Below are positions 30,279-33,159 of a stretch of 64,000 nucleotides of DNA, piece by piece. Under the pieces are notes generated by a model. That model made no database searches. It was not told the DNA's origin and saw nothing but the letters and a program-made list of their open reading frames with translations. The DNA lies in NCBI GenBank assembly GCA_963765495.1, contig CAVXWP010000008.1:480001-544000 (forward strand), in the 5' to 3' direction. The DNA is from Blastocatellia bacterium. Lineage in GTDB: Bacteria; Acidobacteriota; Blastocatellia; UBA7656. Position 1 is the stretch's first letter. Every line of letters begins with the position of its first letter. The position numbers and the translations under genes were made by a program.

Positions 30279-30476
30279 GCTCTGATGAACGAGTCAGACT
30301 GCGGTTTCAAGCGAGTTCTGTATATGGTGCTCGATCTGTACATGGTGCTTGAAAAGCTGATTCTGTTCACAAACCGCTCGGCCGACCCCGGATGAACGCT
30401 GCGCTTTCAGCCTCCATAAATGGAATGCGCAACGTGCGAGCAGGGCGAGGATCAGGTTTGAGCAAGAAGGTTCTTT

Positions 30477-31097
30477 ATGACAATTAAGTTTACCGATCAA
30501 AGATCGGAAGAAGTGAGCCGTTTCAGCGTAAGCACAACCGCAGAGGTTACTATTCAGATCGCCGAAAGAGATGGACATCAATTTATCGTGATCAAAGAAC
30601 AACAGCCCGCAGGGACAACGTCAACTACCGAGCATACGGTCGAGATCCCGGCGGCATTATTTCCTGAGCTAAAGCGCGCTGTTGCCAACCTTGAGGAAAG
30701 TTTCGCGGAAGAGCGCCAATCCGATCTGCAATCGGGAAGGCGTAATGTCAGTTTTGCCCATAAATCGGAAGAGGAATTTGCGCGTATCCTGGATTTCTAC
30801 AGCATAAAGTGGGAGTATGAGCCACGTACTTTCGCCATCGAGTGGGACGAGAACGAAAATGTCTCCAAAAGTTTCACACCCGATTTTTATCTCCCCGAAC
30901 ACAATCTGTATATTGAATTGACGACTCTTAAGCAATCGCTTGTTACGAAGAAGAACAGGAAGGTAAGAAGGCTTCGCGAGTTATACCCTGATGTGAACAT
31001 AAAAATTCTTTACGCATCAGACTATCAGAAGTTGATCGAGAAATTTGCCGCAAGCGGATATCAGCATTTCGAAGAGAGTAAAGAAGACCTCGATTGA
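30477..31097 (+). CDS. PC4-like N-terminal domain fused to a PD-(D/E)XK (T7 endonuclease I-like) domain
   Basis: N-terminal EVTIQIAERDGHQFIVIKE...IPAALFPELKRAV; C-terminal SEEEFARILDFY...WEYEP...FTPDFYLP...YIELTT. Confidence 0.7.
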   Translation: MTIKFTDQRSEEVSRFSVSTTAEVTIQIAERDGHQFIVIKEQQPAGTTSTTEHTVEIPAALFPELKRAVANLEESFAEERQSDLQSGRRNVSFAHKSEEEFARILDFYSIKWEYEPRTFAIEWDENENVSKSFTPDFYLPEHNLYIELTTLKQSLVTKKNRKVRRLRELYPDVNIKILYASDYQKLIEKFAASGYQHFEESKEDLD

Positions 31098-31143
31098 GCA
31101 ATGAGTCTTGAAAATTGAAAGTGGAGATCCAGAATTTTGAAGA

Positions 31144-31395
31144 CAAAAAAACAATCCCGAGTGATTCCAGCATCCGTTTCCAAAACCTCAATGATTATGT
31201 TCAGTTGCCTTGCGACAACCGATCCGCCGAGATCCAAAGGACCTTGGCGCCTGAGATTCTTGCGAACCTCAATCACTTCATTCAGGCTTCAGACCATTGC
31301 CTGCGCACCTTGCGGATTGCCTGCTCCGATCTGAATTTGGAAACATCAAACTAAAACCTCTCGGGATCGTACCTGCTTGTTTCCAACCAGGCACG
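31144..31395 (-). ncRNA. Unidentified structured non-coding RNA, about 250 nt
   Basis: 5' GAAA-capped hairpin, long interrupted closing helix of about 30 bp rich in G-U pairs, multibranch head with GCAA tetraloop hairpins, 3' U7 tract, and its own promoter. Confidence 0.8.
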
Positions 31396-31399
31396 GAGG

Positions 31400-31427
31400 A
31401 TATTATCATAGATTGTCTTTTTGTCAA
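31400..31427 (-). promoter_or_regulatory. Sigma-70 promoter of the ncRNA
   Basis: TTGACA (31427-31422)-N16-TAATAT (31405-31400) with extended TGn. No credible protein gene downstream on this strand. Confidence 0.75.
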
Positions 31428-31470
31428 CGAAAAAATGCAGACATGAAAGAAAATTTTCATTAAAATTTTT

Positions 31471-31998
31471 ATGAGTGGAAAAAACGAGATCGGAAAAGTG
31501 TTAATACCCCAGGAAAGGCTCCAGGAGCGGATTTCAGAGCTAGGCGAAGAAATCTCCCGGCTTTACGAAGAGAAAAATGTAACCATCATCGCGATCCTGA
31601 AGGGATCGTTTATATTTGCAGCCGATCTGTTGCGCGCAATCACCTCGGATGTGACCATAGACTTCATGGCAATCTCAAGTTATGGGCAGTCGGGCAGTGG
31701 TGTTGTCAGGATAACTAAAGACCTTGAAGAAAGCATTGAAGGTCGACATGTCATCCTTGTCGAAGACATTATAGATACAGGGTTGACCGCCAGTTATCTG
31801 CTACGCATACTCAGGCAACGCAATCCAGCCACCCTGGAGATATGCGCTTTGCTTGATAAGTCGGCTCGCAGAATAATCGATTTACCAATTGCCTTCCGGG
31901 GGTTCGATATCCCTGACCTCTTCGTAGTAGGCTATGGAATGGATTTCCAGCAGAGATACAGGAACCTTCCATATATCGCCGCTCTCAAGCAAAGATAG
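31471..31998 (+). CDS. hpt: Hypoxanthine phosphoribosyltransferase
   Basis: ILKGSFIFAADL, SSYG, LVEDIIDTGLT, FVVGYGMD, YRNLPYI. Confidence 0.96.
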   Translation: MSGKNEIGKVLIPQERLQERISELGEEISRLYEEKNVTIIAILKGSFIFAADLLRAITSDVTIDFMAISSYGQSGSGVVRITKDLEESIEGRHVILVEDIIDTGLTASYLLRILRQRNPATLEICALLDKSARRIIDLPIAFRGFDIPDLFVVGYGMDFQQRYRNLPYIAALKQR

Positions 31999-32013
31999 CG
32001 GGCCGATCCTGTG

Positions 32014-33159
32014 TCACGCATTACCCTGAACGTCCAGCAAATAACAGGAATGGGTTTTTATTAGCATCCAGACGCTTTTACCTATTACAAGGTCGAGATC
32101 CTCGATTGCCTGAGGAGTGAGGCTTGCGGTCCAGATCACTCCGGTCGAAACAGAGACGAGAACTCGATTGGCGCGTTGCTCGATATCGCTTATGCGCCCG
32201 CTTATGACATTTCGCGCAGAAGTCTTTATTGATCCTTGAGTGGTGATCAAAATATCGCCGGATGCTACAGCGATCTTTACGTGAGAGCCTTCGGGCTCGT
32301 TTCCCAACGGGACATCCAATAAAGTTACCCCCTGAGAATCTCCGAGTTCCACGGTCATGAAACCTCCCGCCGGATTTCTCGCTATGACTCGACCATCAAA
32401 AATGTTCTCTACACCAGTAAGCCTGGCGATGCTTGTGGTGATAGGCCGCCCGAGGACATCAAGAGGCTCGCCGGTCGCAACGATATGGCCTTGATCAAAG
32501 AGGATGACTCGTTCTCCAAGCGTAACCGCCTCTTCCCTGCTATGCGTTACGTAGATGATTGGGATTCTGAGGTTACGGTTGATCTTTCTTAAATCGGCAA
32601 TGATCCCAAGTTTGGTGCCCTCATCGATTGCGGAGAGCGGCTCATCAAGAAGCAGTATCTTCGGGTTACAAACAAGCACACGCGCAAGGGCAACGCGTTG
32701 AGCCTCGCCACCGGAAATGTCTCGCGGTCTGCGGTAGGCAGTATGGTCGATGTGCAGAGCTTCCATCATCGCCATCGCACGCCGTGTTCTCTCTTTTTTA
32801 TTAATCGAATTCATCCCAAATTCTACGTTTTCAAGCGAGGTGAGATGTGGGAAGAGAGCAAGGTTTTGAAAAACAAAGCCTACGGCCCGGCTCTTGATAG
32901 GAAGATTTATACCGAGTTGGGAATCAAAGAGAGGATCGCCATTAATAGTTATCCGGCCCGAATCGGGTCTTATGATTCCCGCAATTGATTTCAGGGTTGA
33001 GGTTTTGCCTGACCCGGATTTTCCGAAGAGGATCAACACGTCTGATTTAGCCTCGAACTCAAGGTCCAGAATGAATTCCCGCGATAATGCGTCCCGTCGG
33101 GTTGCAGGATCATTCGGATTCGAAGCCGCAAATTTTTTCTTTATCTTTACAGAGAGCAT
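32014..33159 (-). CDS. modC: Molybdate ABC transporter ATP-binding protein
   Basis: GKSGSGKT, ISGGEAQR, LLLDEP, TOBE domain with TSARN. Confidence 0.9.
   Translation of the reverse strand: MLSVKIKKKFAASNPNDPATRRDALSREFILDLEFEAKSDVLILFGKSGSGKTSTLKSIAGIIRPDSGRITINGDPLFDSQLGINLPIKSRAVGFVFQNLALFPHLTSLENVEFGMNSINKKERTRRAMAMMEALHIDHTAYRRPRDISGGEAQRVALARVLVCNPKILLLDEPLSAIDEGTKLGIIADLRKINRNLRIPIIYVTHSREEAVTLGERVILFDQGHIVATGEPLDVLGRPITTSIARLTGVENIFDGRVIARNPAGGFMTVELGDSQGVTLLDVPLGNEPEGSHVKIAVASGDILITTQGSIKTSARNVISGRISDIEQRANRVLVSVSTGVIWTASLTPQAIEDLDLVIGKSVWMLIKTHSCYLLDVQGNA

Follow-up and report, generated by a model that had tools for sequence, protein, structure and literature searches.

A gene for a structured RNA of about 250 nucleotides, outside known RNA families, in one family of uncultured soil Acidobacteria

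Introduction

The Acidobacteriota rank with the most abundant bacteria of soils and consist largely of uncultured lineages; to our knowledge, almost nothing is known about their non-coding RNAs. The present work concerns a stretch of 64,000 nucleotides (nt) from a Blastocatellia bacterium (assembly GCA_963765495.1, contig CAVXWP010000008.1, positions 480,001 to 544,000), called here the window, whose own positions are used throughout. Within it, a gap of 373 nt separates two genes of the + strand, one coding for an endonuclease-I-like protein (30477-31097) and the other being hpt (31471-31998). A sequence-only reading of the gap had placed on its - strand an unannotated, highly structured RNA with its own promoter and a 3' U-tract, and had suggested that it might belong to an undescribed class of non-coding RNA. 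The analysis presented here supports that inference: the gap holds a real gene for a folded RNA of ~250 nt, outside known RNA families, which a single family of uncultured Acidobacteria from soil has retained.

Results

Promoter and predicted ends of the RNA gene

The - strand of the gap carries a sigma-70-type promoter (31427-31400), with TTGACA at 31427-31422, a 16-nt spacer, TAATAT at 31405-31400 and an extended -10 TG at 31408-31407. These elements, already described in the sequence-only reading, can be read directly in the sequence, and a promoter scan of 30300-32100 ranks the site first of six (10/12 matches, TG present). TTGACA and a -10 of the type TGTGnTAATAT are present in all 19 aligned homologues, second copies included, and the position of the promoter predicts a +1 near 31394, where it had been placed before. 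Upstream of the -35, an A/T-rich tract of the same strand (31429-31460, including GCATTTTTT at 31438-31430) abuts the ATG of hpt (31471, +) and may serve as an UP element, which it resembles. A GCAyTTTTT tract and other A/T runs also precede TTGACA in the homologues.

At the other end of the gene, UUGUUUUUUU lies directly 3' of the helix that joins both ends of the RNA, and the U-tract (31151-31145, terminal UGUUUUUUU), also seen earlier, follows this closing helix and gives a terminator-like 3' end. A T-run after the closing helix is found in the homologues as well, all 19 extracted sequences ending in this way; in the long forms of 400-520 nt described below, the tract is weak. A terminator scan makes no call at the 3' end of the RNA, where the 'loop' of the stem amounts to ~200 nt. 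With its ends predicted from promoter and U-tract, the RNA gene spans 31394-31146 of the - strand, ~249 nt from +1 to the end of the U-tract. This arrangement suggests an RNA transcribed from its own strong promoter and ending at the closing helix and U-tract.

Folding, homologues and covariation

The RNA of the - strand (31400-31144) is highly structured, as had been claimed: its folding energy is -118.6 kcal/mol, against -77.4 ± 4.9 kcal/mol in dinucleotide shuffles (z -8.41, with 0/200 shuffles as good). The + strand of the same region reaches -72.1 kcal/mol (z -2.53), a value equalled by 3/200 shuffles.

Homologues with compensatory changes exist. BLASTN found full-length relatives at 67-72% identity in 17 of the 24 other genomes searched from the same family, and in 0/16 genomes outside it; one of the 17 matches is spurious, a 32-nt match inside a coding region. 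The 19 homologues that were extracted measure 254-258 nt each, and their structure-blind MAFFT alignment yields a consensus of 75 pairs, 46 of which show compensatory double changes. From this alignment a covariance model, R1, was built, which scores 225.7 bits at the locus in the window. When 44 distinct full-length sequences were aligned by covariance model, 93.9% of the cells were standard pairs and 48/75 pairs had double changes. Shuffling of columns gives a mean of 28.7 double-change pairs, with 0/500 shuffles reaching 48, and control pairings in which the partners were slid by 1-3 columns give 10-25. One pair is G-U in 44/44 sequences, and another five take the form G-U or U-G in 32-39/44. 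As the earlier reading had held, such pairs are strand-specific: they fit the - strand only, because the other strand would have A-C mismatches. The covariation, together with the G-U pairs, shows selection on one RNA strand.

No reading frame that is conserved or in register was found among the homologues on either strand. Coding potential was considered and rejected: the long open antisense frames that occur lie in differing registers, and 4-50% of composition shuffles reach them.

Architecture of the RNA

The RNA consists of a 5' hairpin followed by one large domain, which is closed by a helix of both RNA ends. In what follows, coordinates are those of the minimum-energy fold (all on the - strand) and helix statistics come from the covariance-model alignment of the 44 sequences. 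The 5' hairpin P1 (31368-31395) is capped by a GNRA loop, GAAA in this genome and GCAA in 39/44 relatives; 99.2% of its cells are paired, 5/9 pairs show double changes, and the UUG/CAA at its top is invariant, so that the invariant top in relatives reads UUG-GCAA-CAA. The closing helix P2a/P2b follows, its nearly invariant 5' strand (31350-31367) reading AUCCCGAG-A-GGUU and its 3' strand (31154-31171) ending in AAUC-A-CUCGGGAU, directly before the U-tract. Across relatives, CGAUCCCGAG-A-GGUU pairs with GAUC-A-CUCGGGAUCG, an A-A mismatch being contained in the helix; 7/14 pairs never vary, three have double changes, and the 5' strand of P2a includes an identical 15-mer, CGATCCCGAGAGGTT, in 36/44 sequences. 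A conserved internal loop, UUGAAA opposite GGA, separates P2b from P2c (31336-31345 with 31184-31175), in which 10/10 pairs show double changes.

P2c opens into a three-way junction with P3 and P4. P3 (31288-31335), found both in the minimum-energy fold and in the covariance-model alignment, is a long hairpin, interrupted by internal loops and tipped by C-GCAA-G; its two helices have double changes at 12/16 pairs and its loop is CGCAAG in 43/44 sequences. P4 (31274-31287 with 31199-31185) has 95.4% of its cells paired and double changes at 4/9 pairs, and closes the four-way junction of the head with P5, P6 and P7. Of these hairpins, P5 (31251-31272) bears a GCAA loop, shared by 29 of the 44 sequences (GAAA in the other 15), and shows double changes at 6/8 pairs. 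P6 (31225-31249), a hairpin of 10-11 bp with a variable loop of UUUG/UUCG type, was left unpaired by the covariance model, and is nevertheless a hairpin of 9-12 bp in 38/38 distinct segments, with many compensatory differences; its loop drifts among UUUG, UUCG, UCAC and GAAA. P7 (31201-31222), also with a GCAA loop, has double changes at 8/9 pairs and CGCAAG in 43/44 sequences. Because the GCAA loops of P1, P3 and P7 are kept while the loop of P6 varies freely, we infer that they are recognised and are more than stable caps. The blocks of near-invariant sequence extend across genera in which the proteins encoded next to the RNA are no more than 50-80% identical.

Most of the helices proposed from the single sequence are thus present in the minimum-energy fold and supported by covariation in the relatives, namely the 5' hairpin, AUCCCGAG/CUCGGGAU, GUUUCCAAA/UUUGGAAAC, the CC-GCAA-GG tip, and the head hairpins UGAGGUUC-GCAA-GAAUCUCA, CGCC-A-AGGUCC-UUU-GGAUCU-C-GGCG and CGGUUGUC-GCAA-GGCAACUG; the four GNRA loops are there too. 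The helix GGUUUUAGU/GCUGGAAUC stood in part: it forms in the minimum-energy fold and its GGUU/AAUC portion is conserved, but its outer part has no covariation support. Two further pairings, CAGGC/GCCUG and UUCAG/UUGAG, are absent from the consensus, where UCAGAU pairs instead with GGUCUGA (in P3) and GCCUGAAUGA with UCAUUGAGGU (in P4). The repetition of GCAGGCAAU in the head, to which attention had been drawn, occurs in 1/19 homologues, solely in this genome.

Length variants and second copies

At the hpt locus of two genera the RNA reaches 400-520 nt (L112 4018-4535, L113 3977-4498, L114 2801-3237 and L115 4076-4500), and at these loci the covariance model first gave two weak tandem matches. 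Promoter, P1, closing helix and P3 are unchanged in these long forms. Their head is made of tandem, purine-rich units of ~52 nt, each with a C-GCAA-G hairpin (5.4 copies with 87% match in L112). By eye, the unit resembles P5 of a sister genus, and P5 appears to be the module multiplied in tandem here.

A few genomes of the family have two or three copies of the RNA, three being the most found in any of them, and at least eight carry a further copy elsewhere. Second copies keep promoter and fold at just 60-67% identity to the first copy. Among them are variants of ~205 nt, which have lost exactly P6 and P7 by a deletion of 50 nt; in addition, one variant of 321 nt has an insertion of 77 nt in P7. 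The conserved core of the RNA is P1, the closing helix P2 with its A-A mismatch and internal loop, and P3 to P5, and the distal head is plastic.

The neighbours of the second copies are unrelated: an amidase with a Cys/Met pyridoxal-phosphate (PLP) enzyme, a MetE-like protein with GH2, an NRPS-like gene, and GntR. In three genomes of one genus, the second copy lies ~105-155 nt upstream of a gene for a Cys/Met PLP enzyme on the same strand, and in another genome it is convergent with a MetE-like gene (loci noted for these contexts: L116 2810-4324, L117 4002-5567 and L021 1369-2883). These neighbours were tried as a clue to function and set aside as heterogeneous, the two methionine-pathway contexts being taken as coincidence. 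In one genome (G011, contig C178, L019/L013), the tandem copy that makes up the second match lies at the primary locus itself, ~1.47 kb from the first; the 5' part of the RNA and its promoter are there twice, together with a duplicated 3' fragment of hpt (residues 140-172).

Distribution

Matches to R1 are present in 49/53 genomes of the host's Blastocatellia family. A sample of the class, searched with stricter filters, gave matches in 33/34 genomes of that family and in 0/116 from nine other families. When one genome per species was scanned for an exact pattern (185,579 species), 44 contigs were obtained, 41 of which R1 confirms. Almost all confirmed contigs are titled as metagenome-assembled genomes (MAGs) of Blastocatellia or Acidobacteriota, including 'Candidatus Onstottus arcticum' (Blastocatellia incertae sedis) and 'Chloracidobacterium sp. 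UBA7656'. The three unconfirmed contigs (Acidobacteriaceae, Marinilabilia and Planctomycetia) were dismissed as chance matches to the pattern. Four confirmed contigs (L037, L047, L052 and L056, at 171-245 bits) bear the title 'uncultured Clostridia bacterium', which looks like a placeholder or a wrong taxonomy; the contig of L037 also matches the hpt and endonuclease-I-like genes of the family. With a looser pattern, 80 loci were picked out among metagenome contigs, 17 of them confirmed by R1. All carriers are uncultured.

Of the four family genomes without the RNA, two belong to one genus and one to another (the two genera are labelled g9 and g17), and the fourth is just 75% complete. Identity to their best hpt match is 51-54%, the same as for the other paralogue, and they seem to be without the whole block of RNA and hpt. 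The hpt loci of these four genomes and of one genome of the sister family score at most 7.3 bits, and the endonuclease-I-like/hpt loci of nine other Acidobacteriota families, searched with the model filters off, at most 8.7 bits.

A divergent version of the RNA was found in a MAG assigned to another family of the class (G136; 10.3 Mb, 6% contamination), in which two tandem relatives of ~290 nt (L121 3198-4050) lie at the same locus, between hpt and the endonuclease gene. They score 13.8 and 12 bits, their folds have z values of -6.1 and -5.1, and they share the closing motif GUCCYRAGAGGU ... UCACUYRGGRYC; the pair has one promoter, and a U-tract only after the second RNA. In the eight remaining genomes of that family, the ~50% paralogue is the only hpt match. 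The placement of the contig is uncertain because the rest of its family is without the block and the MAG is large, with 6% contamination. Within the searches made, the RNA family thus appears to be restricted to one Blastocatellia family, plus this divergent tandem version in one MAG.

Genomic context

The position of the RNA upstream of hpt, noted before, holds, and its wider setting is that of an antisense gene within a split operon. The convergent neighbour, the first gene of the ancestral operon, codes for a protein of 206 amino acids whose C-terminal ~105 residues resemble T7 endonuclease I (PF05367, E 2e-5, below the cut-off; PDB 3cae, E 1.6e-6). In the host's family this protein has an extra N-terminal part of ~90 residues that matches no family. 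The divergent neighbour hpt, second gene of the ancestral operon, scores 204 bits with TIGR01203 (cut-off 150), and its ATG is ~75 nt from the predicted +1 and ~40 nt from the -35 of the RNA. The Hpt-like genes of the genome number three, this one included, and are located at C8:511471-511995 (31471-31995 of the window), C7:56262-56753 (L133) and C13:110903-111388 (L134). The Hpt of the canonical tilS-hpt-ftsH cluster is the most divergent of them, its 121.5 bits being below the cut-off of 150 for hypoxanthine-guanine phosphoribosyltransferase (HGPRTase), and the other two score ~205-209 bits.

The endonuclease-I-like gene adjoins the RNA in 17/17 primary loci and hpt does so in 16/17. The sole primary locus without hpt beside the RNA is that of G007 (L078 1700-3257), which has small open reading frames of 85-153 codons on the - strand instead. 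At the metagenome loci hpt adjoins the RNA in 14/17, and in 11 of these 14 the endonuclease gene is present as well, on contigs long enough to include it. In one genus the endonuclease gene has been relocated and the RNA stays.

Outside the family, the C-terminal domain of the endonuclease is found at 53-65% identity in 32/398 sampled Acidobacteriota genomes (35/401 if the family and G000 are included). In other Acidobacteriota families a same-strand hpt follows the endonuclease-I-like gene in 9/9 loci examined (L138-L146; 8/8 without the unpublished G216); the tblastn matches are 12-65 nt apart, and the RNA is nowhere to be seen between them. The two genes, contiguous in other families, thus form an old operon, which is split here by a spacer of ~370 nt that holds the RNA gene in reverse. 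No convincing conserved hpt promoter was found between the -35 of the RNA and the hpt ATG; hpt is probably transcribed across the promoter of the RNA, and perhaps across the whole RNA gene.

Comparison with known RNA families

The RNA is not a described one, as the sequence-only reading had surmised. Both strands of the window were searched with Rfam 15 (4227 models), which gave no match at the gathering thresholds, and a search of 30900-31700 with permissive filters and E values up to 10 gave three unrelated matches on the + strand, at chance level (E 2.7-5.4). The universal RNAs are encoded elsewhere in the genome: 6S RNA (RF00013) at C2:347817-348004 (46.8 bits, cut-off 46.4), the RNA of the signal recognition particle (SRP) at C8:893500-893596 (56 bits; RF00169 and RF01854 give no match at the RNA locus), RNase P RNA (RF00010) at C1:530752-531254 (268.8 bits) and transfer-messenger RNA (tmRNA, RF00023) at C4:61346-61703 (156.6 bits). 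Acido-1 (RF01686) and Acido-Lenti-1 (RF01687), which are Rfam families, are among the motifs of Acidobacteria reported by Weinberg et al. (2010; PMC2864571); compared through their Rfam models alone, they do not match at the locus. We found no publication on RNAs of this lineage: among the papers listed, those that name it deal with MAGs and ecology, and those that contain conserved 11-mers of the RNA are, judged by title, matches of primer type.

Several kinds of element were tried and rejected. Against a sponge of the CsrB/Rsm type stand loops that are GCAA or GAAA, not GGA, and the fact that CsrA was not found in the genome. A Y RNA or YrlA is disfavoured in that no TROVE gene was found, a tRNA-like module is missing and Rfam has no match. 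Nor is the RNA a miniature inverted-repeat transposable element (MITE) or other dispersed repeat, a possibility the earlier reading had raised and which is answered by the single copy that BLAST and the covariance model find in the genome of 7.3 Mb and by the compensatory changes in 48/75 pairs. As for a cis-regulatory leader, the next gene at the primary locus is convergent, only some second copies precede a gene on the same strand, and no alternative pairing was seen.

Discussion

The explanation that we prefer, with middling confidence, is that of a stand-alone, strongly expressed structured RNA acting in trans, probably through binding of a protein. The RNA would be stable and abundant, and its invariant P1/P2 platform, that is, the duplex with the A-A mismatch, the internal loop and the tip of P1, would be bound sequence-specifically by a partner, most likely a protein. 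The head would present a variable number of repeated GCAA hairpin modules, in the manner of a scaffold or a sponge, and the mode of action might be akin to that of 6S, Y and CsrB-type RNAs without homology to any of them. Action in trans is favoured over local antisense because the second copies keep promoter and fold beside unrelated genes. Sequence-specific recognition, beyond stability, is suggested because the 15-mer of P2a is identical in 36/44 sequences and GCAA is retained in P1 (39/44), P3 (43/44) and P7 (43/44), while the loop of P6 varies.

Several points weigh against this explanation. Promoter, +1 and 3' end are predictions made from the sequence. The primary copy is fixed antisense between two genes of an operon, which would be equally expected of a cis-antisense regulator, and with the -35 of the RNA ~40 nt from the hpt ATG, interference between the two transcription units seems hard to avoid. 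Both strands of P2a might also be near-invariant because of a role as terminator. Among possible protein partners of known type, neither CsrA (PF02599) nor Ro60/TROVE (PF05731) was found in the genome, which is 97.9% complete. Finally, the genomes compared are related and not independent, so that the shuffle statistics overstate significance, and the covariance-model alignment is biased towards its model, the MAFFT alignment nonetheless agreeing with it.

The setting of the primary copy argues strongly for a reading in which a reversed insertion in the operon spacer sets the level of hpt, and of the gene upstream, by transcriptional interference, by pairing with the read-through transcript of the operon or by both, the fold serving for stability. 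The operon is contiguous in all nine loci examined elsewhere and has a gap of ~370 nt with the antisense RNA in the host's family; both genes adjoin the RNA at almost all primary loci; no conserved hpt promoter is evident in the ~40 nt between the -35 and the ATG; and the four family genomes without the RNA are also without this copy of hpt. A regulator of this kind would, however, not need a conserved multi-helix fold, yet 48/75 pairs covary and the GCAA loops are kept. Second copies retain promoter and fold away from hpt, the RNA stays where the endonuclease gene has moved away and has no hpt beside it in G007, and a single block deletion could explain the joint loss of the RNA and the hpt copy. 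We regard this reading as rather unlikely to be the main explanation, and consider that, besides any other role of the RNA, interference or antisense action is probably at work to some degree. The same GCAA loops and P1/P2 platform might alternatively mediate tertiary or intermolecular docking, the RNA assembling with itself alone or with a lineage-specific protein into a higher-order structure, a particle of a kind not seen before. In such an assembly, the closing helix, with its invariant CCC:GGG tract, might for instance receive the GCAA loops, and the size of the RNA would have been tuned in evolution by gain and loss of GCAA modules (205, 255, 320 and 400-520 nt); we hold this for an unlikely proposal.

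The U-tract directly after the closing helix, the conserved nucleotides of the junctions, the start of the convergent gene 50 nt past the U-tract and the second copies that in three genomes precede a Cys/Met PLP enzyme gene on the same strand by ~105-155 nt would all suit a multi-helix aptamer, in which a ligand stabilises the terminator formed by the closing helix and read-through produces an antisense RNA to the endonuclease-I-like gene or, for second copies, the downstream mRNA. We give little credence to this, as no anti-terminator pairing is evident, no Rfam riboswitch matches, the contexts of the second copies are heterogeneous, and the head tolerates the loss of two helices and the gain of at least five extra modules, unlike a ligand pocket in a multi-way junction. 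Just as doubtful is a scheme in which the adjacent Hpt paralogue binds the invariant GAUCCCGAGAGGUU of P2a, as PyrR, a protein of phosphoribosyltransferase (PRTase) fold, binds its site in pyr leaders. PMC7430163 gives the consensus of the PyrR site as ARUCCAGAGAGGYU, which this invariant 14-mer fits at 12/14 positions; the neighbour is a PRTase, one of three Hpt-like genes, and in the family the paralogue and the RNA either occur together or are jointly absent. The likeness was spotted after the fact, and RF00515 finds nothing in the region (E up to 10) or in the genome. The motif is mostly paired within a long helix, whereas PyrR sites are described as having a loop-and-bulge setting, and the linked Hpt proteins have ordinary HGPRTase scores (204 against 150 bits) and show no basic shift, with a pI mostly of 5-6 and a net charge of about -2, like the Hpt of Acidobacteriota that do not have the RNA. 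Finally, the long closing helix of 5' and 3' ends is reminiscent of 6S and Y RNAs, and a few genomes have two or three copies, as might be expected of a divergent member of a known family (6S, SRP, RNase P, tmRNA, Y RNA, Acido-1) or of a mobile or DNA-level element such as a MITE or palindrome. Either is highly improbable: the four universal RNAs are found elsewhere above the Rfam thresholds, nothing in Rfam matches, no TROVE gene was found, the RNA is present in single copy here, and covariation that includes G-U pairs means selection on one strand of an RNA.

The RNA family is undescribed and its architecture distinct, while its kind, that of stand-alone, lineage-restricted structured non-coding RNAs, is familiar. 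Acido-1, Acido-Lenti-1 and Bacteroidales-1 are likewise stand-alone motifs, not leaders, each defined by covariation in one mostly environmental lineage and with no known function (PMC2864571). The present RNA is larger (~250 nt, with 8-9 helices) than orphans of the Acido-1 type and matches no Rfam model; it has four conserved GNRA loops, and its head holds from none to more than five extra modules. With 6S and Y RNAs it shares a long, interrupted and conserved closing helix of 5' and 3' ends and a more variable distal part, and it may share abundance and protein binding; unlike 6S RNA, which has a gene of its own in this genome, it is multi-branched and not a rod with a central bubble. Its long forms resemble CsrB and RsmZ in their variable count of hairpin modules and purine-rich linkers, but the loops are GCAA and not GGA, and the common form of 255 nt has only three such hairpins. 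It also differs from the PyrR site (RF00515) in that it is no leader, lies on the strand opposite to the PRTase gene, and neighbours an HGPRTase, not PyrR. The raiA motif, OLE, ROOL and GOLLD are large 'ornate' non-coding RNAs with many tetraloop-capped helices, multi-way junctions and strong conservation, whose function is not established. The RNA described here is smaller, occurs in a different phylum and has no homology to them by Rfam.

An rRNA-like strong promoter, a near-universal presence in the family and extensive covariation are the marks of an important cellular RNA. Its size of ~250 nt suits chemical probing and cryo-electron microscopy, its length variants separate the core from the modular parts, and the alignment is a ready seed for a new Rfam family. 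The reversed placement of the gene in an operon found across the phylum is a natural experiment on the birth or insertion of an RNA gene and its effect on the host operon. Should the docking proposal be true, the RNA would be, in principle, a compact and tractable counterpart to the RNA-only assemblies of the large ornate RNAs, coming from a major phylum of soil bacteria.

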